Virus record (IMG/VR): IMGVR_UViG_3300026187_000011
Location: 14,344-78,343 of that record
DNA from: a virus
Lineage: Duplodnaviria > Caudoviricetes
DNA length: 64,000 nucleotides
Reading direction: 5' to 3' (one strand)
The translations under genes were made by a program, and so were the position numbers. The notes beneath the pieces are model-generated. The model was given only the letters and a program-made list of their open reading frames with translations. It was not told the DNA's origin and ran no database searches. Within the stretch, counting starts at the first letter, position 1; each line of letters begins with the position of its first letter. Positions 4,728-19,345 of the stretch are shown here, in pieces.

Positions 4728-5016
4728 GGAAGAAGTATGCCCGCCTGACCCAAAGTATCACATCGAAGGGTCACACATGATATGTGAGGACGGCAAGCCT
4801 GTCATTGTGTCATCATTGTGGAAGTGTATCCAGCGTGTACGACAGATGGAGAGTGGTATGACTAGGATGTACGAGCACTCTGACCTCACCATCATGCCAT
4901 ATGAGCTAGTCATCACTAAAGATGAATACGGAGGTAGTACTGCCACATTGCCTGTAATGCACCCTCTCAAGGAGGTGAGTAACTATGATGAGCAACCCAT
5001 ATCACGATTCAAATGA
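4702..5016 (+). CDS. Hypothetical protein
   Basis: ORF in operon; true start may be GTG at 4717. Confidence 0.65.
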   Translation: MRSYTVSIEEEVCPPDPKYHIEGSHMICEDGKPVIVSSLWKCIQRVRQMESGMTRMYEHSDLTIMPYELVITKDEYGGSTATLPVMHPLKEVSNYDEQPISRFK

Positions 5017-5720
5017 GTAAAATGAGCGAGATGGACATTGAAGTGAGTAATATATGTCCAGGCACACCCGAGCGTCCAATCAGGGGCTCGGAGCATACAT
5101 TCAAGAACCTACGGGGAGAATGGATTGAGCAAGTAAAGTTAGGTACAGATGGTGGGCGCGGACATACGCATCGCGTTATACTATCACACGGCAATGCATT
5201 CAACCGACACGGCGGATTGTATACCAAATGTGACACGAAACATATATATGAAGAGTTGCGTGAGATATTCACGCCGAACACAGGGTGCAGAGTATTCGAC
5301 ATTGAGATGATTGCATCCGGTCCGAACAAAGGCAAGTGTGCCCTACTCGATATTCCTGACATGCGGAGCATGGGGAGACGAGATGTTCAGACTTGGAACG
5401 GCAGACCAATAAGTGAGGAGGCTACCGAATACCATGTGCGTCACGATATAATTAAGGCATGGTTGCCCGCTCAGCCATATTGGGAGGAAATTAAGTACGA
5501 CATATTTGCTCTGCCATCGAGCGACTGCGTATCAGGCAGAGTGAATACTAAAGAGTATCCTGACATATCACTTGCGGGAGCGATGTACGAAGACATGAAA
5601 TCCCTATCTGAGAAGTGGGAGGATATGCCGTATGAGGGTGTGGTGCTAAAGAAGCGCACCCATACATACAAATGGAATCAAAAGGACACATCCGAATGGA
5701 TAAAAGTCCGATACAAATAA
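5013..5720 (+). CDS. ATP-dependent DNA ligase-like nucleotidyltransferase (adenylation domain only)
   Basis: Motif III-like VFDIEM, IIIa-like LLDI, motif IV YEGVVLK, motif V WIKVR. Motif I is atypical (FKNLRGEW) and there is no OB domain. Confidence 0.65.
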   Translation: MSKMSEMDIEVSNICPGTPERPIRGSEHTFKNLRGEWIEQVKLGTDGGRGHTHRVILSHGNAFNRHGGLYTKCDTKHIYEELREIFTPNTGCRVFDIEMIASGPNKGKCALLDIPDMRSMGRRDVQTWNGRPISEEATEYHVRHDIIKAWLPAQPYWEEIKYDIFALPSSDCVSGRVNTKEYPDISLAGAMYEDMKSLSEKWEDMPYEGVVLKKRTHTYKWNQKDTSEWIKVRYK

Positions 5721-6298
5721 TGACAACAACAGCAACACCAGTCCTTGCTTCACAACTTGAGGAAGCAAGAGCAATGATGTCGGGTGGCTCCGACCGGTTC
5801 TACAACAATGAGCCATTAACAAGCGAGAGATACATATACACCGAGGGTGTCCGTCAGCATATGGAGCTAGCGGAATCCTACTGGTTATTGAACGACATAC
5901 TCATTAATGCTGAGCATCGGCTCAAGAAAGAGCAGTTCCTTGTGGTTGAACTAATTGTGCCACATGAGCAAGGGTATGAAAGATTAGACCGTGTGCGATT
6001 TGATGTTAAGACACACAATATACTCAAGGACAGGCATGGCATCCCTAAGAAATTAGTAGAGGATGTAGTAATGGAAGAGCATGCGCTTAATGTTACTGCT
6101 GCCATGCTCACCATGAGGCAGGACACAGACATTCCTCCTGCGTATCACAGGACATACAACATCACTAATCATCCCCCTGGTCGTTGGAAGTTCTATCTCG
6201 AACAGGGTGCTATCCCAATTAGGGGAGCGAATGACTTCGGTGATGATTGGCCGAACATGGCACTCGGATACACACTAATGCTACCTAACGAACGATGA
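5720..6298 (+). CDS. DUF6876-like conserved phage protein
   Basis: YIYTEGVRQHMELAESYWLLNDI matches my recollection of the YTDGV..AYWL.D motif; TAATG-coupled start at 5720. Confidence 0.6.
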   Translation: MTTTATPVLASQLEEARAMMSGGSDRFYNNEPLTSERYIYTEGVRQHMELAESYWLLNDILINAEHRLKKEQFLVVELIVPHEQGYERLDRVRFDVKTHNILKDRHGIPKKLVEDVVMEEHALNVTAAMLTMRQDTDIPPAYHRTYNITNHPPGRWKFYLEQGAIPIRGANDFGDDWPNMALGYTLMLPNER

Positions 6299-8438: not shown

Positions 8439-8662
8439 AGCTAGGAGACAGAAGGCTTGATACCATTGAGCCAAGAGACACATTTCTCGATTACGAGGAT
8501 GATGATGTTGTCTACCCTTTTGAAGAGGGTGATGACTACTTCACGATTGAAGACGGGAAAGTGGTTTGGTCCTGCTGGGATGATACATCCGAAGAGCTAT
8601 ACGACCCTAAGAAAAAGTATTACGCTACAGAAGAAGAGGCTGAGCGTGCACTAAATCAATGA
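8435..8662 (+). CDS. Acidic hypothetical protein
   Basis: ATGA-coupled start MKLGDRR. Confidence 0.7.
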   Translation: MKLGDRRLDTIEPRDTFLDYEDDDVVYPFEEGDDYFTIEDGKVVWSCWDDTSEELYDPKKKYYATEEEAERALNQ

Positions 8663-9552
8663 AGGAATACTTCACAGGCACCGACCGATTCTCGGAGGCA
8701 CACAAACTATCTAGGACTGAAATAATGCCTGATGGTTCAGACTGCCAATCAGGTGCCATGTTATCCGCTTATGCACTACGGGGGAGAAAATCTCCCCCTA
8801 GTGTTGGGCGATGGATGTTAGATAGTGGAGCATTCACGCAGGTTACAAAGTATGGAGATTTCATACAATCTCCTGCCGAGTATGTACGCTTAGCCGTACG
8901 CTTTCAGGATGCAGGAGACTTAGCTTGCATAGCCACACAGGATTATATGTGTGAGCCAAGCGTTATTACTGAACTGCAGTCACAAGGCAGAAAAGCATCT
9001 GTTAGAATACACCAGAACAATACAGTTAAAAGGTACATCGACATCATGGATGAGGCTGTGAAACAAGGACTCAAAGTTCCGGTCATGCCTGTTCTGCAAG
9101 GATGGGAGGTCGAGGATTATTACGACCACTACATTAAGTACTGCAATGAGCTATCTAATAGAAGGTATTGGAATGGTAAGGAGTGGCACTGCCCGTTCAT
9201 GGACAGACCGTATTACCATGGGCATACAGGAGAGCTACTCAATACAGGTCATTGGATAGGCATTGGCTCTACATGTAAACGCAACACTAATCCTGAGGTT
9301 GTATCGCAGATACTAGACAGGCTAGGCAGTTGCATTAATTACGAGTACCATAAGGTGCATCTGTTTGGGTTCAAGAAGACAGGTCTAGCACAAGCTAACA
9401 TCAAAGACCGAATCCATTCTGCTGACTCGTTTGCTTATGACTTTGCCGACCGCATGGCAGGCAAGGAGCGTACATCTCGCAAAAGGATTAAGTCAGCCCG
9501 CAAGTTCGGGCAATCAATCATTCACAATAATGTTCAAACAAATTTATTATGA
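8659..9552 (+). CDS. dpdA: DpdA/TGT-like transglycosylase (7-deazaguanine DNA modification family)
   Basis: WMLDSGAF, QDYMCEP, PVLQGW, IGIGS.CKR, VHLFGFK and SADS motifs typical of phage queuine-tRNA-ribosyltransferase-like DpdA. Confidence 0.75.
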   Translation: MKEYFTGTDRFSEAHKLSRTEIMPDGSDCQSGAMLSAYALRGRKSPPSVGRWMLDSGAFTQVTKYGDFIQSPAEYVRLAVRFQDAGDLACIATQDYMCEPSVITELQSQGRKASVRIHQNNTVKRYIDIMDEAVKQGLKVPVMPVLQGWEVEDYYDHYIKYCNELSNRRYWNGKEWHCPFMDRPYYHGHTGELLNTGHWIGIGSTCKRNTNPEVVSQILDRLGSCINYEYHKVHLFGFKKTGLAQANIKDRIHSADSFAYDFADRMAGKERTSRKRIKSARKFGQSIIHNNVQTNLL

Positions 9553-9773
9553 CAGACCAAATAATACTACCGAGCGTTGGCTCGTATATACAGACGGACG
9601 GATACATTGGTCCACTGCAAGCCGACGGTAAACCTGATATACAAAATACCATCCATATCAATGATGCCAATGCTTCTTGGTTCAATGCCTTGAACGCATA
9701 TGACCTGGCATTGGTTAGGAGCATCAATAAAGATATAAATGGCACCGCTGAATTACCATCAAATCCAAGATGA
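9549..9773 (+). CDS. Hypothetical protein
   Basis: ATGA-coupled ORF. Confidence 0.65.
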   Translation: MTDQIILPSVGSYIQTDGYIGPLQADGKPDIQNTIHINDANASWFNALNAYDLALVRSINKDINGTAELPSNPR

Positions 9774-10114
9774 GCAAAGGAGCATACCACACTGATTGTG
9801 TGCATGAGGGCGAGTATGACGTAGACCTAAGCTATTACATTATAATTTGGGATGACCCAAATTGTTTTGAGATTAGGTCACGCTTACAGCTGATAACATT
9901 CCTTGGTCACTCCCTAGCTTGTGACACATACAAGTATATACTCTACAGTGACAATTGTAACACCGTGCAGGAGACAAGAGATATTCGTGAGATTCTTGTG
10001 CACCTTGACAAGTCTGAAGACCAAGGATTCAGAAAACCTAGTCAATACTACGTCGGTGATGATGAAGGATATACCCAAATACGAAGAATAATTACCGCAC
10101 AAGGGGACGCATAA
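9770..10114 (+). CDS. Hypothetical protein
   Basis: ATGA-coupled ORF. Confidence 0.7.
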   Translation: MSKGAYHTDCVHEGEYDVDLSYYIIIWDDPNCFEIRSRLQLITFLGHSLACDTYKYILYSDNCNTVQETRDIREILVHLDKSEDQGFRKPSQYYVGDDEGYTQIRRIITAQGDA

Positions 10115-10116
10115 CA

Positions 10117-10815
10117 TTGAAGAACTGGTCAACATGGCAACCATCCAATGTGGATGAGCTTATTGGGTCGAAGACTCAACAGATATATAGAAACATAGAG
10201 ACGCAACTCGATGCATTCTCTGAGCAAACAGGTCGTGCTCGCTCAGGCAGGTATGTTCTGTCAGGTCCCCCCGGATGTGGCAAGACAACCATTGCAAGAC
10301 TACTTAGTAACAAGTGGGTTCCTGATGAGCGTAATCGTTCCATCTGTATTAAATCATGGATGGGTCGTGCTGTATCCAAAGAGTGGGTACAGGATTTAAT
10401 AAATGAGACCAGGATGTCATGGATGTATGGCAATCGTGCGTTGATTATTAACGAAGCCGACAAGGTACAGCCTGCTGCTCAAGACTTAATGCTTGATTGG
10501 CTGGAGGATGAGCTGCCTGAAGGTTACTTGGTTATGTGTACAACCAACGCCAAGGTTGCTACCGAAGGCAAGCAGGCAACCCTCAAGTTGTCGAAGACTG
10601 ACAAGGATGAGTATTTATCCACTAAGTTTCTTTCGCGACTCACCAAATACCACCTCGACTATCCTCCTGTAGATGAAATTTCGGAAGGACTATCACGCAT
10701 AGTGAAAGAAAACTGCCCTGAATATGTGGCTCTGAATGCAGCCAAAGCATCAGGTGGTGATTTACGACAAGCATTCAAAGAACTGCAAATATTCCAAGCT
10801 GAATTACTAACTTAA
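10117..10815 (+). CDS. Clamp-loader clade AAA+ ATPase (RFC/DnaX/RarA-like)
   Basis: WQPSNVDELIG (RP..L.D.IG-like), Walker A GPPGCGKT, Walker B IINEAD, sensor 1 TTN, LSR arginine finger. Confidence 0.8.
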   Translation: MKNWSTWQPSNVDELIGSKTQQIYRNIETQLDAFSEQTGRARSGRYVLSGPPGCGKTTIARLLSNKWVPDERNRSICIKSWMGRAVSKEWVQDLINETRMSWMYGNRALIINEADKVQPAAQDLMLDWLEDELPEGYLVMCTTNAKVATEGKQATLKLSKTDKDEYLSTKFLSRLTKYHLDYPPVDEISEGLSRIVKENCPEYVALNAAKASGGDLRQAFKELQIFQAELLT

Positions 10816-10820
10816 TATTT

Positions 10821-11615
10821 ATGTCACAAACATATAAAACTGCCGCTTTCGTTGATTTGTACGAAGCGCTTAAAGAGAGAGCCGCAAAGCACGGCGATGA
10901 AGTCAAAGTCAACTTCGTCAGAAATTGCTTAAAGCGTGTTAACCCCAAGATTATGACCATTATGAATGTCGCCAATGACAACGAGTGGTCATTCTTACCT
11001 AAGCCCGACGATGCTCCTGACAAGGGTGCGAGTGATGAAGATTCATTCATTGCTCAAACAAAAGACCGATACTACAAGCAGTGGCTTGAGCGTGTGAATA
11101 AGGGTGAGTTCGATAAGAAGCGTCCGGATATGCACATTGGTGAGGATGCTCCTAGAGAAGAGGAAGAGGTCGACATGGTCGCTCTTGCACGTGCTGAAAA
11201 GGAGAAAGCTCAGAAGATTGCGGCGGCCGAGCAGGCTCCTGTTTCAATCGTTAATGAGCCGAAGGAAGAGGAAGAAGATTGCATGGAGACTTGCAATGGT
11301 GAGCCTTGCCCCAATGGCAAGGAGTGTGAGCCTCATGAGGATGACAATGGGGACTTCGATGAGACCCATGAGGAGGCAATGAAGCATGAGCAACGCCTTG
11401 AAGAAGGCGGCATTGCCAAGGTTGAGAGCCACGCTCATTCGGAGATGCGTCTGCTTGATGCACTCTCTGACTTTGTCACTCGTACTGCGGTGGCGAATGA
11501 TTCACCTCCGGAGGATACTCCTGCACCTGAGGTTGACCTTACTGAGGTTAATGCCCGTCTCGACAAGTTGGAGAAGAAGGTAGCTTCTCTCTTCAACGCA
11601 ATGCGTGATTTATGA
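10821..11615 (+). CDS. Acidic hypothetical protein with C-terminal coiled coil
   Basis: 264-aa clean ORF, E/D-rich middle. Confidence 0.75.
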
Positions 11616-11881
11616 GAGGCACAGCAGGGTGCATAACAGGAACAAACAGTCGTACGGGAATGCGAATTAGCATACCTCGTATGTCAGGCGGCGACTCAGG
11701 TCACAGGCTTAAAAAGCTTGTGGCGTGGGCTCGCGACCACTTGCCTGAAGGATACGCATTAACTCTTGATGAGATTGGCAAGAGCGTGGGCATCACAAGA
11801 GAAAGAGTAAGGCAAATAGAAGCGATTGCCCTAAGGAAACTTAGGCATCCAAGTAGAATAAAAAAGATTAAAGAAGATTGA
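11612..11881 (+). CDS. Stand-alone sigma70 region 4 helix-turn-helix protein
   Basis: [32 protein letters not shown] is nearly the RpoD region 4.2 consensus [29 protein letters not shown]. Confidence 0.9.
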
Positions 11882-12366
11882 AAATAACAGACATACAACA
11901 TCTGCTTGAGGAAGGCTATCAAGTAGAGATTGTCGCATCCAAAATGGATGACGGCAGAATACGAGTAATATATCTACCCAAAATAACAGGTGATAAACTG
12001 AAACTGGGTGATGCAGACAAGTCTGTATTGCAAAACCCATTCATCCTCAAAGGTACTGCTGAAGAGCTAGATAAAGAGTCTCCTGCCAAGATTAAAGAGT
12101 GGACATCCAAGCTCAAGGAAGGCAAGGACAACCTGGAGCAAATACAGGCAGAGTTGGACAAGGCTGCCAAAGCTAAGAAAGCTTCTGCCAAGAAAGCAAC
12201 ACCTGCCAAGAAGCCTGCTGTTAAGAAAAAGACAGCGGCAGAAAAGAAAGAGGAAGCACGCAAAGCACAGGCAGCTGAACAGGGAGACTTGTTCTCTGAT
12301 AATACAAGCAGGCTTGATGACAATAAAGATGCAATGGCAGATGAGATTGCCGAGTTAGGAATATGA
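11878..12366 (+). CDS. PRTRC system protein E
   Basis: RVIYLPK..DA...[13 protein letters not shown] signature, then a Lys/Ala/Pro low-complexity tail; first gene of the cassette. Confidence 0.8.
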
Positions 12367-13025
12367 TGGAAGATGAACTAGATACCCTGGTTGAAGCACA
12401 AGAGCAATCAGGAGCAAGTATGGATGACGGGGATGATGTTATTCGAATTCAAGTCGACCATGACCAAGACTTATCCGAAGCAGTGTTTGAGTTGGAGCAA
12501 GGACTAGCACAGAAGGAGGAGGGTGAGAGACTAGAGAAAACTGCCAAGCAAGTGTTATCCAATCATGCGCGGAAGATATTGGCTGAACATAATGGAAAGG
12601 AAGGGACTATCCCCAAGAAGTTCGGCTTTGTCTCTAAGACATATACTGCATGGATTAATACTAGACCCAATGGATATGGCAAATTCACAAAGGGAATGGT
12701 AGATGACCTTGCAAAAATAGATGCGAGTATTTCGAAACATCTGACAAGGGAAACATCAGTATCAACAAAATGGGGTTCTATCCCTGAAGACAAACGGGCG
12801 CGGGCGGTGGAAATCATGATGGAACTCAACTATCTTGTGTATGGAAAGGAATGGAAGGCATCCAGTAAGCAACCAAGTCTTGTAGTTGTTGAACGTGTTC
12901 ATAAAGCAAGGACGGATTCCTTCTACACAAATCAGTTCACCATACAAAAGGATGCGATGCAGAAGCTACAGGAGCTACAGCCTATTAGGTTTGCATTGTC
13001 ATCTACAAATGGAAGGAAGAAATGA
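12363..13025 (+). CDS. Hypothetical protein inserted in the PRTRC cassette
   Basis: 220-aa ORF coupled by ATGA to PRTRC E and C. Confidence 0.75.
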   Translation: MMEDELDTLVEAQEQSGASMDDGDDVIRIQVDHDQDLSEAVFELEQGLAQKEEGERLEKTAKQVLSNHARKILAEHNGKEGTIPKKFGFVSKTYTAWINTRPNGYGKFTKGMVDDLAKIDASISKHLTRETSVSTKWGSIPEDKRARAVEIMMELNYLVYGKEWKASSKQPSLVVVERVHKARTDSFYTNQFTIQKDAMQKLQELQPIRFALSSTNGRKK

Positions 13026-13255
13026 GTATCGAAGAAGATAAATTGACGCGTGTGTTCAAGTTTAATGGTAAGGAGTTGCCTGACCCTGACCCTACCATGA
13101 CCCCACGCGAAGTTATGGAGTTATATGCTAGACAATACACATCATTAACAAATGGAGAAATCGCAGGACCATTCTACGACGGCGACCAGCAAAACTGGAA
13201 GCTCGAAGGGAAAACAGGGTACGCAATGTCAGGAAACTACGGAACTAAAGGATGA
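13022..13255 (+). CDS. PRTRC system protein C (prokaryotic ubiquitin-like)
   Basis: RVFKFNGKELPDPDPTMTPREVMELYARQYTSLTN..GP and C-terminal GTKG match the Prok_Ub/PRTRC-C family. Confidence 0.92.
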   Translation: MSIEEDKLTRVFKFNGKELPDPDPTMTPREVMELYARQYTSLTNGEIAGPFYDGDQQNWKLEGKTGYAMSGNYGTKG

Positions 13256-13267
13256 TGAGTTCGACCA

Positions 13268-14191
13268 ATGGTTAACATTATCTACGAGTATCCAGACGGG
13301 GTTACCGAAACAGGGACAGGGGACGCTACCGTCCCTTGCCCTGCCGCCCCTTTTCTGAGAGTTCCCACAATCTACCCGACCAATGTACGAGTATCGCTCG
13401 ATATTAATCATCACTCTCGGCTTGCTAGTTATCAATTCAAGAAGGAGCCTGACGAAGATGATGAATTGACACAGATTGCACACAGTATTGCGCATGGAGA
13501 TTCAGAGCCATTCTTTGACCTCACTGTTCGTGTTGCACATACACAAGACGGGGGCATATATGCTTTCATCGACCCACACTGTTCAGGTGTTACTACCTTT
13601 GCAGTTGGCGGTCGAGTGGGTCTCATTGACCGGCACTACAAGCGTGCGGGTGCATTTCTGTTATGGTTAATTGAGAAGTGTCCGCTACATGTGTGGAATC
13701 CTAACACTGTGCAAGAGTTCTCTTGCAAGCCGTACGGCGGATATGAGTGGAATGAACAGCATCAGTTAGATGTATGGGATTTGCCTGTCGGTGATTGGAA
13801 TGGTGTGCCTGAGTTACCTCCAAACTTAACAAGAATCGTCAACGAGTGCTTGGAAGCCCACAAAAAGTGGGAAGATAACTACAGAGAGTATGATGATGTT
13901 CAGTTGTTTCCTATTGGACTAGCAGTATGGCACGACACTGTGCCTTGGCAGAACAAGCGAACCAAGCGTCAGAGAGACTTTGGTATTGAGCGTGGCAATG
14001 ACCTGTCATGGTTAGCACTTGATGACCTTGGTATGTACCACATGGAGACAGGAGTGCATAGCACATGCACCGAACTAATACACTCAATCGACAGACTACA
14101 AGAAATCATGGAGCTTTCCGCTCCGTTTATAAAATTATTCAAATACTTATCACATGACTCTAAGGAAATCTCTTACCACTATTCCTTTTGA
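13268..14191 (+). CDS. Putative PRTRC system protein F-like
   Basis: 307-aa ORF in the position of protein F, between C and B; assignment is mainly by synteny. Confidence 0.45.
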   Translation: MVNIIYEYPDGVTETGTGDATVPCPAAPFLRVPTIYPTNVRVSLDINHHSRLASYQFKKEPDEDDELTQIAHSIAHGDSEPFFDLTVRVAHTQDGGIYAFIDPHCSGVTTFAVGGRVGLIDRHYKRAGAFLLWLIEKCPLHVWNPNTVQEFSCKPYGGYEWNEQHQLDVWDLPVGDWNGVPELPPNLTRIVNECLEAHKKWEDNYREYDDVQLFPIGLAVWHDTVPWQNKRTKRQRDFGIERGNDLSWLALDDLGMYHMETGVHSTCTELIHSIDRLQEIMELSAPFIKLFKYLSHDSKEISYHYSF

Positions 14192-14741
14192 TTTCGAAAT
14201 CATCAAGGGATTGATTTTTTATAAAAACGAGCAAACTAAACAAAACCTTGCTGTTATGTTCAAGCATGACAAAGGCAGGTTTCATTCGCCTGAGCCATTC
14301 AGTAAGGAGCAACTATATTCACTCCTGCCGGATGAAGAGAAACAAGACTTATGCTACCAACCTAACACACTATACTATAGTGCAGACAAAATGGTGTGGT
14401 GGGTGAAAGGAGGGATGCGATACCTAGATGTTGTAGATAAGCCACGCAAGCAATACCGAATGCCAAGACTATTATTCAAGGTGCAGTCACACAAGTTATT
14501 CGTTGCAGCATTCAAGGGTGAGCCAACCGATGACACGCCACTTTTCGCCGCGCCATTTAGGGGTATTGATGTTCATGGCGAAGCCATGGGTTCATGCAAT
14601 GTGCGACTACCTAAAACTCAAAAGATGAAGGACAGAGACCAATGGGAGGATGCGTTCTTCATGTCCGCTTTTAACCAAGAACCAAAATATAACAATCGAG
14701 CTTTGAATAAAACGATTAGCGAGTTTATATTTTGTTATTAA
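14154..14741 (+). CDS. PRTRC system protein B (prokaryotic E2 family D)
   Basis: MVWWVK, MPRLLFKV...LFVAAFK, TPLFAAPF and WEDAFFMSAFN motifs. Confidence 0.85.
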   Translation: MTLRKSLTTIPFDFEIIKGLIFYKNEQTKQNLAVMFKHDKGRFHSPEPFSKEQLYSLLPDEEKQDLCYQPNTLYYSADKMVWWVKGGMRYLDVVDKPRKQYRMPRLLFKVQSHKLFVAAFKGEPTDDTPLFAAPFRGIDVHGEAMGSCNVRLPKTQKMKDRDQWEDAFFMSAFNQEPKYNNRALNKTISEFIFCY

Positions 14742-14756
14742 TTATTTCGTGTAACA
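14733..14756. promoter_or_regulatory. Degenerate palindromic site
   Basis: TGTTATTA attatttc GTGTAACA overlapping the PRTRC-B stop codon. Confidence 0.45.
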
Positions 14757-14799
14757 TAGACATATGTATATTCGATTAGTGTAATTATATTCATAATCA

Positions 14800-14910
14800 G
14801 GTGATGGGGTCCATAGGCATGTCTTTTTCCTTAGTTAATGAAGGATATGAAGGGACAATGAGAGTGCAGGCAGCAAATCTGCATGATGACCAGTAACCTG
14901 CCCCATCACC
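14800..14910 (+). ncRNA. Candidate structured cis-element upstream of thiF-like gene
   Basis: Perfect 10-bp closing stem GGTGATGGGG/CCCCATCACC enclosing TCCTT/AAGGA and TGCAG/CTGCA hairpins; ends 13 nt before the ATG. Confidence 0.5.
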
Positions 14911-14923
14911 ATCTATTTTTAAA

Positions 14924-15592
14924 ATGTCACATAAAATTGAAAATCTATCCGAAGACAAAATACTTATTGATGTTTACGGATGTGGCGGTACAGGTAGCCA
15001 TGTGATTAATGGTTTAGCTAGGATTGCAAAAGCACTTAGCGAACTCAATCATCCTGGCATACATGTCACCGCATACGACCCTGATATTGTCACCCATGCT
15101 AATGTGGGTAGGCAAGCATTCTACGAAGCAGATGTTGGCGAGTACAAATCCTCTGTATTAATTGAGCGCGTAAACCTTTACTATCGACAGAATTGGCGAG
15201 CAGTTAAGCGTAAGGCACCTAACTATACCAAAGCTCACATCTGTATTGCTTGTGTAGACACAAAAGCATCTCGCAAAGAAATCAGTGAAGCTAAGTACAA
15301 TGACAATGCATACATAATTGATTGCGGTAACTCACGGGCTTCCGGTCAAGTTATCCTTGGGCAAAGTAAGGGTGACCTACCATTCCCGTATGACAAGGAA
15401 CTAACCGAGGGCGATGAGCCTCAGGAACCCAACTGCATCGACCAGTATTATCGTCAAGACCTGTTCATAAATTCCATGATTGCAAACCATGCACTACACT
15501 TTGTTTGGACATTGTTCAGACGAACATCACTTGACATTAGAGGCGTGTTCCTCAATTTGGAAAGTGGTATTACAAACCCAATAAAATGCTAA
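14924..15592 (+). CDS. PRTRC system ThiF/E1-like adenylyltransferase
   Basis: GCGGTG nucleotide-binding loop, YDPDIV..ANVGRQ, CVD...R, IIDCGN, GQVILG, PNC..QDLFIN. Confidence 0.92.
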   Translation: MSHKIENLSEDKILIDVYGCGGTGSHVINGLARIAKALSELNHPGIHVTAYDPDIVTHANVGRQAFYEADVGEYKSSVLIERVNLYYRQNWRAVKRKAPNYTKAHICIACVDTKASRKEISEAKYNDNAYIIDCGNSRASGQVILGQSKGDLPFPYDKELTEGDEPQEPNCIDQYYRQDLFINSMIANHALHFVWTLFRRTSLDIRGVFLNLESGITNPIKC

Positions 15593-15786
15593 CAACAAGA
15601 TATGTTGTCCTCGATGAGTATAGTTTTGTCGAATACGAAGAAGACGGAACTACTGCAATATTCGAGAGTAAAGAAGATGCGGAGAAGGTCAGAGACTTTC
15701 TCCATGAAGAGTACAAAGAAGTAAAGAGCGTAACAAGAACCATGGGGACAAACCTACAAGTTATCCCATTTGTTACTAAAGATTAA
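15586..15786 (+). CDS. Small hypothetical protein
   Basis: Coupled ORF between thiF-like gene and helicase. Confidence 0.65.
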   Translation: MLTTRYVVLDEYSFVEYEEDGTTAIFESKEDAEKVRDFLHEEYKEVKSVTRTMGTNLQVIPFVTKD

Positions 15787-18254
15787 TGCACGCATATGAC
15801 CTATGGGTCAACTCCAGCGGTACGCTAGGGGTTGATACCTCAGGGTGGCTAGGCGACAAGGTTGAGCTTGCTCTTGACCTAGTTCGCGGTAGCACACCGA
15901 TGGCACTCACTACGAGTGTTGATGACAGAGATAGATTGATACAGCTTGTTAATAACAATCGTGTATTGATTCAGCCGGAGGCACGCAGGGTAATTCTCAA
16001 GGCACTCAATGAGTCCAAGACTATTGCTCCACCCCTCATGCAGCCAACTGATTATGAGTTGATTGCATACATTGATGAAGTCAAAGAACTGACTGCTCGC
16101 AAGTCGGTCAATGGCCCTCACATGTTCATCACTGAAGGCAGGACATACGCGTTCAGCAGGTCTGCGCCAAAGTACAATGTACCGTTTCGTCGCAAGAAGA
16201 TGCACTTCAATGAGGAGACTCGGTCATCGTATGCCATGACTCATGAGATGATGCTTGTCGGCAAGGATGATGCGTTCCGCTTCACTGATGATGCAGGACG
16301 CATGATTATGTTTCGCGACCATGCGGTGGGCGACAGGCAAATCAAGGGCGAGCAAGTGTGGGAGTTCTTTGACAAGCCTGCCATTCCCAATGTTCGTACT
16401 AAGTATCGCGAGAAGTTTGATGACATTCGCTCTCGGCTTGAGATGCACGAGTTCGTTAATGACTTCAACTTCTATCCTGGGCAACTCGACTACATTTCCT
16501 CAGTTGGTTGCGTTGACTCTGCTCTTGTCTCTGCTGATACCGGGTGCGGTAAGACCCTCATCGCTATATCTTTGATTACCGCAAAGAATGCAGGCAAGAC
16601 ACTGGTTGTTGCCCCCAAGGGCACAGTCAAGGATGAGCATGGCGTTGAGACAAACCATGACCCTGCTCAGTGGATTAAGGAGTTCAAGACGTTTGCTCCC
16701 GAAATGCCTGTCCACAAGCTGTTCAGTAAGAGTGACTACTATGAAATACTTGAGGCAAATCATGGTGAGCTACCAAATGGCGTATATGTAACATACGACC
16801 ATGCCATGTTCCGCACAGGTGCTTTCGAGCAGATACCGGAAGCTTGGACTAATAATGATGAGAAGATTGAGAAGAAGTTCCGCAAGCGATTCTCTAAGGA
16901 GTTATCCGCTTCTGGATTTAATACAGACAGAAACTCATTCTCGCAATACCTCTCACAGGGTATTGGTTGTGTGAGTAATGGTATCAAGTGTGTCATGGAG
17001 CCATGCTTGTCTACCATTATCGGTGAGGTGTGGGATATGGTTATTCTTGATGAGGCACACCTTATCTGCAATCTCAACAGTCAAGTTACTAACAACTTGA
17101 TTCGACTACAGCCACGGTACAAGTTCGCTCTGTCTGCCACACCGATACCCAATATGGTATGGAATATCTTCTCACTCATGGGTTGGTTGTGTGTGCCTGA
17201 TTGGTATCAGGGCGAGCGCAGTAATCCTCGCTGGCCATTCACTCGCGAGGAGATTAGCAGATTCAAGCAGAGGTTTTCCTCTGTCGAGCGTGACCTTACA
17301 CAAGAGTTGCTTAATAGACAAGCGGGTCGCAACCCACCTGCCCCACGCAAGTCACCGCTCATATCTGAGCCTGCTGCTCTTCTCAAGTTACTGCGACCAA
17401 CCGTTGCCTACATTAGTAAAGAGCAATGCAACCCTGACCTGCAACCATGCGAGGTCATTGATGTTCGCGTCCCTATGGGCGCCGAGCAACGTGCACTCTA
17501 TTCATACTACCTTGATGTTGCTAAGATTCCATGTGCTGACCCACGATTCCGTTATGGTGTTCAGTTGTCTTACCTTCGTGGTATATGTGCTGACCCTGCG
17601 GGTGTTGAGTATGACGATGAGAATCGTCCAGTTGTGTCATCCAACTGCAATCCCAAGCTTATTACCATTATGGATACCATATTCAAGTGCGTGTCCAATG
17701 GTGAGCAGGTGGTTCATGTTTCTGCTCGCATCAATATGAGCAATGAGATTGCCACACGCTTGGAGTCCTGCGGTATCACATACAGTCGTATTGATGGTAC
17801 AGTCACCGACCATGCGGCAGAAGCTTCAGCATTCAAAGCAGGCAAGACTCAGGTGATGCTTATGGGCATCAAGTGTGCTCAGTCGTACAGCTTTCAGCAA
17901 TGCTCCAATCTTATCATTGGTAGCCTTGAGTGGTCGTACGGCACATTCTCGCAAGCGAAGGGTCGTGTATGGAGACTCAATAGTCCCAAGCCCGTTAAGA
18001 TATATGTCATACTCCACAATGATTCCATCGAGGAGCTTATGTTCGACAAGCTAGCCAACAAGGAAGATGCTGCTACCATCTGCCTACGAGGCGAGCGTGT
18101 TGATAATGATGTCATCTCCGTTGATACATCCGAAATTCTTGCCGAGCATATTGATGGATGGAAGGAGTATGACCGGGGTGAGCCTGCTGAGTTTGCCACA
18201 GAGGAGACTTGGCTAAAAATGAGAGAGGGATTGCTTGACCCTTTGGTTGCTTGA
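15786..18254 (+). CDS. SNF2/SWI2-family SF2 helicase
   Basis: Walker A ADTGCGKT, VILDEAH, LSATPIPN, SRIDG, motif VI QAKGRVWRLN. Confidence 0.92.
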   Translation: MHAYDLWVNSSGTLGVDTSGWLGDKVELALDLVRGSTPMALTTSVDDRDRLIQLVNNNRVLIQPEARRVILKALNESKTIAPPLMQPTDYELIAYIDEVKELTARKSVNGPHMFITEGRTYAFSRSAPKYNVPFRRKKMHFNEETRSSYAMTHEMMLVGKDDAFRFTDDAGRMIMFRDHAVGDRQIKGEQVWEFFDKPAIPNVRTKYREKFDDIRSRLEMHEFVNDFNFYPGQLDYISSVGCVDSALVSADTGCGKTLIAISLITAKNAGKTLVVAPKGTVKDEHGVETNHDPAQWIKEFKTFAPEMPVHKLFSKSDYYEILEANHGELPNGVYVTYDHAMFRTGAFEQIPEAWTNNDEKIEKKFRKRFSKELSASGFNTDRNSFSQYLSQGIGCVSNGIKCVMEPCLSTIIGEVWDMVILDEAHLICNLNSQVTNNLIRLQPRYKFALSATPIPNMVWNIFSLMGWLCVPDWYQGERSNPRWPFTREEISRFKQRFSSVERDLTQELLNRQAGRNPPAPRKSPLISEPAALLKLLRPTVAYISKEQCNPDLQPCEVIDVRVPMGAEQRALYSYYLDVAKIPCADPRFRYGVQLSYLRGICADPAGVEYDDENRPVVSSNCNPKLITIMDTIFKCVSNGEQVVHVSARINMSNEIATRLESCGITYSRIDGTVTDHAAEASAFKAGKTQVMLMGIKCAQSYSFQQCSNLIIGSLEWSYGTFSQAKGRVWRLNSPKPVKIYVILHNDSIEELMFDKLANKEDAATICLRGERVDNDVISVDTSEILAEHIDGWKEYDRGEPAEFATEETWLKMREGLLDPLVA

Positions 18255-18259
18255 TTTTA

Positions 18260-18283
18260 AGTAACTAATAACAATAAGTAACA
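18260..18283. promoter_or_regulatory. Degenerate palindromic site abutting the integrase ATG
   Basis: AGTAACTA ataacaat AAGTAACA directly before ATG 18284; preceded by ATTTTAAG. Confidence 0.45.
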
Positions 18284-19345
18284 ATGAGATACGAAAAGAA
18301 TAAGAAAACCGGCATTTATTCTGCCGTGATTAAGACAGCAAATGGTAAAATCATTAAGCGTTCACTTGGAACAAGGAACAAAGATGAAGCCAAGATGTTA
18401 GCTAAGGAGGCTAAGTTGGCAGAGATAGAAGCTGCTGCCAGGATAAAAGCACTTACCCGTGACACAATTACTGCCATTGTTGCAGGGAAGAATATAAAGA
18501 TTCAGGAGGTGGTTGGTGAATATGAGGAGTTTAGGAAGATGAAGTCCCACTCGAAGCATACAATCTATACTGAAGGGACTGTTATTAATTCATTCCTTAA
18601 ATTCTCAAAGCTACAAAATTCAAAGATATCCAGCATTACAACCAAGCATATCTATGAGTTTGTAAATGTAAGTGATAAGACTTCGTATAATCATAAGTGC
18701 AAAAAACTAACAGCAGTCAAAGGTTTACTGACCTATGCAATTGCCAATGCTTACATCCTCAAGGACCCTTCCTATGGGGTGTCTGTGGATAAATCATTGT
18801 TGTCCCACAAGCAGAAGGAGAAAAAGAAATCCATAGCTTTCACTAAGTCAGACTACGAAAGAATCCGTAAGCACTGCTCATACTTCTGGAGCATTGCCGC
18901 TGACTTTGCCTGGTGGACAGGGTTACGCATAGGTGATATCGCAAGCTTAGAATGGGATATGTTTAATGATAAGTATCTGACTGTGCATACACAGAAAACA
19001 GATGCTAGAGTATCACTTCCAATAGATGACGAGCTAATAGGCGGAGGGATTCTTCATGATACTATCGCTAGGATTGAGCCGGAGGATAAGAAGTATTGCT
19101 TTCCTATATGGAAAAAAATCTATGACAATGTATCCTCGCGAGCCACGCTTGCTGTATACTTCGGTAGAGAATTAGAACGAAAGCATCCGAAAGCATATGA
19201 AGAAGGTAAGCGCTTCCATTCTTTCAGGCGTTCATTTGTTACTAGATGCGCACGCGAAGGTAAGGAGCTTAGCGATATTGCAGTAATGGTGGGGCACGCC
19301 AATGAAAGCACCACACAACTATATGATACGGGCTCCAGGCTTTGA
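18284..19345 (+). CDS. int: Tyrosine recombinase/integrase
   Basis: TGLRIGD (Arg), KTD (Lys), FHSFRR (HxxR), VGH and TTQLY (Tyr) catalytic motifs; N-terminal SLGT arm. Confidence 0.95.
   Translation: MRYEKNKKTGIYSAVIKTANGKIIKRSLGTRNKDEAKMLAKEAKLAEIEAAARIKALTRDTITAIVAGKNIKIQEVVGEYEEFRKMKSHSKHTIYTEGTVINSFLKFSKLQNSKISSITTKHIYEFVNVSDKTSYNHKCKKLTAVKGLLTYAIANAYILKDPSYGVSVDKSLLSHKQKEKKKSIAFTKSDYERIRKHCSYFWSIAADFAWWTGLRIGDIASLEWDMFNDKYLTVHTQKTDARVSLPIDDELIGGGILHDTIARIEPEDKKYCFPIWKKIYDNVSSRATLAVYFGRELERKHPKAYEEGKRFHSFRRSFVTRCAREGKELSDIAVMVGHANESTTQLYDTGSRL

Follow-up and report, generated by a model that had tools for sequence, protein, structure and literature searches.

Can a tailed phage run a ubiquitin-like conjugation system of its own from a handful of short genes and, if so, what would that system serve? 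The question is raised by a 64,000-nt stretch (hereafter, the window) of the IMG/VR record IMGVR_UViG_3300026187_000011, corresponding to bases 14344-78343 of a source record of 78,343 bp that CheckV rates as 100% complete. The plus strand of the window carries a cluster of genes for relatives of a ubiquitin-activating enzyme (E1), a ubiquitin-conjugating enzyme (E2) and a ubiquitin-like protein (Ubl). The arrangement is that of PRTRC, short for ParB-Related, ThiF-Related Cassette, which equals operon type 6d of Iyer, Burroughs and Aravind, who in 2006 predicted it to be a genuine Ubl conjugation system of prokaryotes (PMC1779556). The reading that we favor, with moderate confidence, is that the phage cassette is a working, streamlined PRTRC-type Ubl conjugation module, in which the most probable task of PRTRC_E is to recruit the machinery to DNA and to the sliding clamp.

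That a phage should have a PRTRC cassette is no novelty in itself. The first-pass annotation of this DNA held these cassettes to be known mainly from plasmids and integrative and conjugative elements; however, phage copies are already on record. In Ralstonia phage Dina (NC_055026, gp02-gp07), the genes E-C-F-B-A-ThiF are annotated as such in RefSeq, Burkholderia phage BgVeeders33 (OK665841) also bears PRTRC genes, the Burkholderia gladioli phage AB2 carries a cassette whose function a 2026 paper calls unstudied (PMC13366799), and a prophage copy in Phocaeicola vulgatus figures in a 2026 preprint.

The cassette and its conservation

The cassette occupies positions 11878-15592 of the window and consists of six co-directional, mostly overlapping open reading frames (ORFs) in the order E-x-C-F-B-ThiF:

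11878..12366, plus strand: PRTRC_E, 162 amino acids (aa); TIGR03741, 49.3 bits (cut-off 37.95); PF19556, 33.8 bits (cut-off 26)
12363..13025, plus strand: x220, 220 aa, without a family; overlaps both neighbors, E and C, by 4 nt each
13022..13255, plus strand: PRTRC_C/Prok_Ub Ubl, 77 aa; TIGR03738, 61.9 bits (cut-off 45.95); PF14454, 63.4 bits (cut-off 25)
13268..14191, plus strand: putative divergent PRTRC_F, 307 aa; no direct match to a hidden Markov model (HMM), linked by hhalign to Dina-type PRTRC_F
14154..14741, plus strand: Prok-E2_D/PRTRC_B-like E2, 195 aa; PF14460, 69.7 bits (cut-off 25)
14742..14923, no strand: intergenic gap (182 nt) from the E2 gene to the E1 gene, the sole sizeable gap of the cassette
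14924..15592, plus strand: PRTRC-type ThiF/E1, 222 aa; TIGR03736, 202.5 bits (cut-off 144.75), or 201.7 bits in the genome search

The identification of these six ORFs as a PRTRC cassette, proposed in the first-pass annotation, is borne out by the coordinates, by the curated HMMs of NCBIfam (TIGR03734-TIGR03742 for PRTRC) and Pfam at their own cut-offs, and by hhalign for F; E, C and ThiF all score above the curated thresholds of the PRTRC, Prok_Ub and ThiF models. On this sequence evidence, we assign the cassette to the PRTRC-type E1/E2/Ubl modules, with E-C-F-B-ThiF as the conserved core. In the PHROGs collection, E, x220, C, F and B were each without a family. The proposal that the genes form a coupled operon stands in part: the genes overlap as described (F and B by 38 nt), but the 182-nt gap parts the E2 gene from the E1 gene. 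A copy of a palindrome is located at 14733-14756, where this gap begins, and may mark an internal regulatory point. Operon boundaries are not callable from a promoter and terminator scan of 9500-18400, in which the counts did not exceed shuffle expectation.

The E1, which also passes the general ThiF model (PF00899, 41.1 bits against a cut-off of 28.1), contains the Gly-rich loop GCGGTG, the NVGRQ motif, Lys75, Asp112 and Cys171. In an alignment of 26 homologues (A1) that extends to proteins of Dysgonomonas and Burkholderiales, G19, G21, G22, G24, D52, N60, G62, R63, Q64, K75, C110, D112 and C171 are invariant, so that the loop, the NxxRQ motif and the cysteine recognized from the first reading are not only present but fixed across the alignment. 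The solved sequences closest to the E1 profile are those of the eukaryotic E1s UBA5, UBA6, UBA3 and SAE2. The relatives of the phage enzyme fall into about 45 protein clusters at >=45% identity, with lengths of 215-236 aa and many of them on contigs of 50-80 kb; further out are the longer canonical PRTRC E1s (245-296 aa, compared with about 222 aa here).

The E1 is encoded in 73 IMG/VR records, of which 50 were searched for JAB, ParB_N and terminase genes; a phrog_2 terminase is present in 27 of these 50. Eight IMG/VR records make up the clade of the window, their E1s form one clade, and the cassette is intact and syntenic throughout, with the shared order (clamp loader)-(acidic protein)-E-(x)-C-F-B-ThiF-SNF2...DpdA...integrase. 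Four of the clade records, approximately 73-81 kb long, are rated complete, and one record has direct terminal repeats. The cassette is thus conserved rather than decaying; degradation or absence in relatives, which had been put forward as a ground for abandoning the proposal, was examined, and the cassettes were found whole. Two side observations concern the E1s of this clade, which lack both the insert of 10-40 residues found in canonical PRTRC E1s between the GQVILG strand and the catalytic-Cys loop (A1 columns 177-215) and the basic C-terminal tail of the Burkholderiales proteins. Another viral record, IMGVR_UViG_2788500581_000001 (18,141 bp; loci L053 and L060), contains the cassette twice: ThiF is matched at two places, and PRTRC_C and E are each present as an identical pair spaced about 10 kb. 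The cause is either duplication in tandem or a repeat introduced by the assembly.

The components differ in their divergence within the clade. Compared with the clade record L004, the proteins of the window are 76% (ThiF), 75% (C), 59% (B) and 44% (F) identical, and compared with L005, 60% (ThiF), 59% (C), 48% (SNF2), 24% (B) and 22% (F): the E1 and the Ubl evolve slowly, the E2 and F fast. This disparity bears on the proposal of the first-pass annotation that the cassette may tag host or phage proteins as counter-defence or for host takeover. The chemistry would then be the same and only the targets would differ, for instance defense or proteostasis factors of the host or the phage's own proteins, and the E2 and F would serve as fast-evolving target-recognition parts in an arms race. 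The disparity fits with the report in the 2026 preprint that PRTRC protein B of the P. vulgatus prophage is a recurrent mutational hotspot, linked to a diversity-generating retroelement, and with the description of the alpha-helical partner of type 6d as 'rapidly diverging' (PMC1779556). However, fast evolution by itself is no proof of an arms race, neither a target nor mimicry of a defense system was detected, the PADLOC models yielding only weak, generic E1 similarity, and the conserved neighbors of the cassette are replication proteins rather than anti-defense genes. We regard counter-defense as an unlikely, if serious, alternative.

A related possibility is that the cassette protects its carrier, either as a prophage- or element-borne defense against competing phages, resembling the Bil system, or as an addiction or maintenance module. 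BilABCD is a bacterial E1-E2-Ubl system with a role in antiviral defense (10.1101/2023.09.26.559546), the phage encodes two integrases, many of the related IMG/VR records are classed as proviruses, and addiction or protection roles have been proposed for such operons (Iyer 2006; PMC1779556). Nevertheless, among 185,579 species-representative genomes, there is no E1 more than 42% identical to that of the phage, so the clade is not seen as a resident prophage; furthermore, no PADLOC defense model was matched beyond the weak E1 similarity, and the cassette is embedded in an early/replication operon, not in a moron-like island. Such a role accordingly strikes us as quite improbable. The cassette is conserved and, as judged from its genes and their motifs, probably functional as a Ubl conjugation module.

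Two of the six proteins required separate treatment. The 307-aa product between C and B has no match to the PRTRC_F model (TIGR03742) at E <= 1, nor does any other protein encoded in the 78,343-bp record. An hhalign comparison with a mixed set of canonical F proteins gave no link either; once the Dina-type proteins were separated from the Bacteroidota-type ones, the 307-aa family aligned with Dina-type PRTRC_F over 178 columns (probability 97.6%, E 2.8e-12). The protein is thus, by profile comparison, probably a divergent, fast-evolving PRTRC_F. Its family comprises only 37 clusters among 1.84 billion representatives, and weak outliers of that search themselves match TIGR03742 below its cut-off. 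AlphaFold2 (AF2) predicts an alpha/beta protein (predicted local distance difference test, pLDDT, 81.9; predicted template modeling score, pTM, 0.77) for which no solved relative was recognized (best Foldseek E 0.65; best Z 2.3 in the VIA wide search), a result that does not prove a new fold; the ESM Atlas contained no usable match. In JAB-less cassettes, the position of F can be held by a protein of 361-425 aa (L015:6106-7272, L023:6123-7256 and about 95 similar ones in viral and Bacteroidota loci) with no detectable similarity to TIGR03742, Dina-type PRTRC_F or the F of this phage (hhalign probability 0.2-9%), so that two families without common origin may share the 'F' slot.

The second is x220, for which no Pfam, NCBIfam, PHROG or PADLOC family was found. 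In L004 its homologue sits between E and C, L006 and L007 have it directly after ThiF, and in L005 it is found upstream, a pattern suggestive of a clade-specific accessory gene that is mobile in position around the cassette. Clusters found in the ESM Atlas were all unnamed and viral, and the Atlas model is poor (pTM 0.36). We considered x220 as a JAB in disguise and rejected this: hhalign detected no similarity to PRTRC_A or F, and the HxH motif is lacking.

The Ubl terminus and the E2 active site

The first-pass annotation had noted the absence of ParB, JAB and ParM genes from the window, and this holds for the whole 78-kb record. There is no match to PRTRC_A (the JAB peptidase, TIGR03735), whose model recovered both positive controls, Dina and BgVeeders33 (2/2), and none at E <= 1 to PRTRC ParB (TIGR03734) or PRTRC_D (TIGR03739); a ParM-like gene is likewise lacking. 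This outcome also bears on a role in partition or in the maintenance of a plasmid-prophage, as implied by the name 'ParB-related cassette', by the wording 'putative partitioning cassette' applied to Burkholderia phages (PMC13366799) and by the ParB_N genes in 15 of the 50 related viral records. Yet ParB_N genes are found in 0/8 records of the window's clade, the phage has integrases, and the E1/E2/Ubl core persists without the partition genes, all of which makes partition the least probable of the explanations considered here.

The lack of JAB is best viewed together with the C-terminus of the Ubl. As had been read from the sequence, the Ubl ends in GTKG-COOH and is translated in finished form. 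In every JAB-less locus, the Ubl likewise ends exactly at GxKG (56/56 viral and 49/49 bacterial), whereas in all five loci with JAB it extends past the glycine, by 47-60 residues in the three bacterial ones. JAB itself is rare: TIGR03735 was matched in 1/50 viral records and 0/23 complete ones, and JAB was found within 8 kb in 3/80 bacterial loci. JAB loss is thus the norm in viral records carrying a PRTRC E1, and 'stripped-down', the term used for the phage cassette in the first-pass annotation, does not denote a special trait, given that JAB is missing in 49 of the 50 IMG/VR records and 77 of the 80 bacterial loci. Because the Ubl is made already ending at the reactive glycine, JAB would be dispensable here, and the rule that JAB occurs only where the Ubl has a tail speaks for function, and against decay, of the JAB-less forms.

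By homology to characterized E1/E2 systems, the course of the reaction can be sketched. ThiF/E1 would adenylate Gly77 of the 77-aa Ubl, which would then be held as a thioester on Cys171 of the E1 and handed to Cys148 of the E2, a residue conserved in the clade; the E2 would, in turn, move the Ubl onto lysines of a target. F and E are envisaged as obligatory partners of this conjugation core; E would most likely recruit it to DNA and to the sliding clamp, and could serve as its adaptor or be its substrate.

Much of what weighs against a working module concerns the E2. It passes PF14460 but is not a standard family-D member, as all three signature residues are replaced; with the PRTRC_B model (TIGR03737), it scores 67.4 bits, under the cut-off of 131.45. 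In canonical PRTRC_B, the signature consists of Asn137 (47/47), Cys144 (47/47) and His175 (43/47; all column counts); in the clade of the window, the respective counts are 1/8, 0/8 and 0/8, and none of the three residues is retained in the E2 of this phage. Instead, the clade E2s contain Asp139 (8/8), His141 (7/8) and Cys148 (8/8, and 14/14 clade rows of alignment A4), so that the active-site loop of this phage reads D139-V-H141 ... C148. The canonical counts match the published description of the type 6d E2s, in which the Cys is conserved and a His C-terminal to it is 'absolutely conserved' (PMC1779556). Since the spacing of His141 and Cys148 equals the canonical Asn-Cys spacing, the change can be read in two ways, as a register shift by 4 residues that places the His in the Asn position or as a true relocation of the Cys. 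The AF2 model of the E2 has a pLDDT of 81.6 that drops below 50 at residues 139-144, and the catalytic competence of the enzyme would accordingly rest on a clade-specific Cys in a loop of low model confidence. Foldseek with this model gave no match at E <= 0.001 and no E2 among the results. Apart from the E2 itself, the literature searched holds no biochemical test of any PRTRC system, and none of our analyses identified a conjugation target.

On the other hand, in the VIA wide search with E2 residues 64-190, about 20 of the top 50 chains were UBC, UEV or RWD domains, at weak Z scores of 3.0-3.7, which is weak but directional support for the E2 fold. A PDB sequence search with the B profile returned nothing relevant, a word-based protein search for B found 8 relatives only, and the predicted B+F complex, with a score of 0.01 against a mark of 0.32 and run without controls, counts neither way. 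A clade with a rebuilt active-site signature amounts to a natural experiment on E2 catalysis.

The loss of the canonical Asn, Cys and His can also be explained if the cassette belongs to a sulfur-carrier or cofactor pathway, like ThiF-ThiS or MoeB-MoaD, in which the E1 would do no more than adenylate or thiocarboxylate the small protein, the 'E2' would be a non-catalytic scaffold and the product may feed a nucleic acid modification linked to the DpdA transglycosylase encoded nearby. The E1 is, after all, a member of the ThiF family (PF00899), and genes for DpdA and a DpdE-like SNF2 protein accompany the cassette in synteny across the whole clade. Against this stand the strict retention of a Cys in the E2 loop of the clade, the proximity of the E1 profile to eukaryotic E1s and not to the MoeB or ThiF structures, a cassette that encodes no rhodanese, cysteine desulfurase or sulfurtransferase, and the absence of DpdA from the other 65 viral loci that retain E-C-F-B-ThiF. 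A sulfur-carrier pathway hence seems to us hardly more plausible than partition, and conjugation remains the reading that we carry forward.

PRTRC_E, its neighbors and a possible link to the sliding clamp

A clue to function is offered by PRTRC_E, which consists of an N-terminal domain, a Lys/Ala/Pro-rich stretch, the pentapeptide QGDLF (residues 135-139) and an acidic tail. Bacterial proteins bind the sliding clamp through peptides of the consensus QL[SD]LF or QLxLxL; QGDLF agrees with the former at 4 of 5 positions. The pattern Qxx[LMI]F is found in 20 of 56 viral E tails, compared with 1.0 expected from shuffles (maximum 5). Among bacterial E proteins, for which ALSLFNQD, APSLFT and QTSLF are common endings, 36 of 54 have x-polar-L-F within the last 45 residues, as against 150 of 947 other ORFs (16%; p 1e-15). 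Of 73 viral loci, 13 have the clamp gene, dnaN, no more than 8 kb from the cassette; in 11 of these 13 it is E's direct upstream neighbor, as it is in 5 of 80 bacterial loci. A SNF2 gene is within 8 kb in 24 of the 73 viral loci.

The surroundings of the cassette in the phage are best introduced along with the genome itself, for which the following features are pertinent:

L003:1144-2673: large terminase (TerL); phrog_2, 2e-23
8659-9552: DpdA-family transglycosylase; PF23859, 3e-23
10117..10815, plus strand: clamp-loader-like AAA+ ATPase; phrog_5846 'clamp loader of DNA polymerase', 2.2e-23
11612..11881, plus strand: sigma-70 region-4 protein, 89 aa; PF04545, 4.9e-12; NF004208 (RpoD C-terminus), 4.8e-15
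15786..18254, plus strand: SNF2-family helicase, 822 aa; PF00176, 5.3e-17; phrog_62, 2e-48; PADLOC DpdE, 9.9e-17

With its terminase, DnaB-type helicase, exonuclease and two tyrosine integrases, the record is the genome of a tailed phage. The tail-like genes, including that for a 4138-aa protein, are located in a long minus-strand block, and the cassette in the plus-strand early/replication block. There, the DpdA-like transglycosylase is followed by the clamp-loader-like ATPase, an acidic 264-aa protein, the sigma-70 region-4 protein and the cassette, after which come a 66-aa ORF, the SNF2 helicase and an integrase; the placement between a regulator and a SNF2 helicase described in the first-pass annotation is therefore correct. 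The clamp-loader-like ATPase is upstream of the cassette across the clade, with homologues in L004, L008, L009 and L010, and the SNF2 helicase, in which no RING domain was detected and whose C-terminal half is weakly DpdE-like, is directly downstream and syntenic in the clade.

The case for a role of E at DNA or at the clamp thus combines the Lys/Ala-rich stretch and QGDLF within the protein, dnaN upstream of E in other loci, and the flanking clamp loader and SNF2 genes in this one. Three points count on the opposite side. The putative clamp-binding element is a short and degenerate peptide; under a stricter C-terminal definition, the viral E proteins are not enriched (11/53 vs 110/894, p 0.09), so that the clamp-motif result depends on how the motif is defined; and this phage encodes no DnaN of its own, dnaN being absent from the record searched, although the clamp loader is present upstream. 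Weighing these observations, we place the chances that E docks on the sliding clamp through its tail peptide at about even; that the clamp or fork proteins are what is actually tagged seems to us unlikely. The genomic context suggests a link to DNA replication and the sliding clamp at least as much as one to counter-defense or takeover.

A bolder extension, which we offer as speculation and would ourselves bet against, is that PRTRC in general is a sliding clamp-directed Ubl system, in which the E1-E2-F machinery would attach the Ubl, at the replication forks of mobile elements, to one of three acceptors: E, the clamp itself or proteins bound to the clamp. The E tail, of the QxxLF type, would sit on the beta clamp, and the system would work with the neighboring clamp or clamp loader and SNF2 proteins as a prokaryotic and phage counterpart of PCNA ubiquitylation; in the clade of this phage, the E2 catalytic center would have been re-invented as Asp-x-His...Cys. 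The merit of this conjecture is that docking on the clamp via a short PRTRC_E peptide is a concrete hypothesis for the entire family and that, if the clamp link is true, ubiquitin-type control of the replication clamp is not a eukaryotic invention.

Several other observations on the same block and on the distribution of the phage deserve mention. The 89-aa protein is hardly more than a sigma-70 region 4, the stop of its gene overlaps the start of PRTRC_E, and a homologue was found in L004 only; it could be a sigma mimic or appropriator. DpdA and the DpdE-like SNF2 protein bracket the cassette, and the synteny of both is kept across the clade (L004-L010), a hint of a DNA modification module of the 7-deazaguanine type from which the customary biosynthesis genes are missing. 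The early block further encodes, at 5672-6298, a DUF6876 protein (5.9e-12) and, at 5013-5720, a 235-aa protein in which the adenylation domain of ATP-dependent DNA ligase is represented by its C-terminal end alone (PF01068, 3e-7). The whole cassette is contained in three sequencing runs, all labeled as soil metagenome, and marine and freshwater runs contain small shares of its sampled words only; no RNA run is among the matches listed for 11878-15592. A megablast search with the cassette against 50,697 phage records gave no match.

Comparison with known systems

Eukaryotes ubiquitylate PCNA by means of Rad6-Rad18 and Ubc13-Mms2-Rad5/HLTF, a conjugation kit that operates with a sliding clamp and a SNF2-family helicase. 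By analogy, the clamp-like peptide of E, the dnaN genes beside E in other loci and the clamp loader and SNF2 genes flanking the phage cassette may be seen as counterparts, whereas homology is limited to the generic E1, E2 and Ubl folds and the SNF2 protein has no detected RING domain.

Among bacterial systems, E1-E2-Ubl chemistry has been shown only for BilABCD (type II Bil; 10.1101/2023.09.26.559546) and for Cap2 of the cyclic oligonucleotide-based antiphage signaling system (CBASS). The phage cassette is not a member of these systems, although it shares with them the E1 adenylation domain, the predicted catalytic cysteines of E1 and E2 and the C-terminal glycine of the Ubl; unlike them, it is without an E1-E2 fusion, an inactive adenylation domain or a deubiquitinase, and it is encoded by a phage, not by its host. 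In searches with the PADLOC models, the E1 showed weak similarity to CBASS E1-E2 fusions (E 1e-5 to 4e-4), with nothing for C, B, E or F, and the NCBIfam model 6A-MBL cap2_3 scored 27.2 bits against a cut-off of 320.

The JAB-less cassettes of IMG/VR phages and proviruses and of Bacteroidota genomes (e.g., L015, L023 and L092), which often adjoin dnaN and SNF2 genes, resemble the present one in the layout of the five genes, in a Ubl made in finished form and in the lack of JAB. They differ in that the canonical Asn, Cys and His of the E2 are kept and the 361-425-aa protein in the F position has no detectable similarity to PRTRC_F or to the F of this phage. The cassettes of the cultured temperate phages Dina, BgVeeders33 and AB2 are likewise phage-borne, with E-C-F-B-ThiF in the early region, and the Dina-type F is a detectable homologue of the F described here. 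In contrast to the present cassette, they still include JAB (gene A, placed between B and ThiF), and their Ubl is extended after G[RT]KG; their E1s are 36-38% identical to that of the present phage, and their genomes measure 33-39 kb compared with 78 kb.

Finally, PRTRC/type 6d as originally defined agrees with the phage cassette in the E, C, B (E2 family D) and ThiF families and, as judged by profile comparison, probably in F, in their order, in the GxKG end of the Ubl and in the fast divergence of the F partner. The phage cassette departs from it in the absence of ParB, A (JAB) and D, in the insertion of x220, in the compact E1 without the insert, and in an E2 with Asp-x-His...Cys that is about 25 C-terminal residues shorter. 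What is new here is not a new kind of system but the combination of a compact E1, a rebuilt E2 center, a divergent F, an extra gene and the lack of JAB and ParB, and in this form the phage helps to define E-C-F-B-ThiF as the minimal conserved unit of PRTRC.

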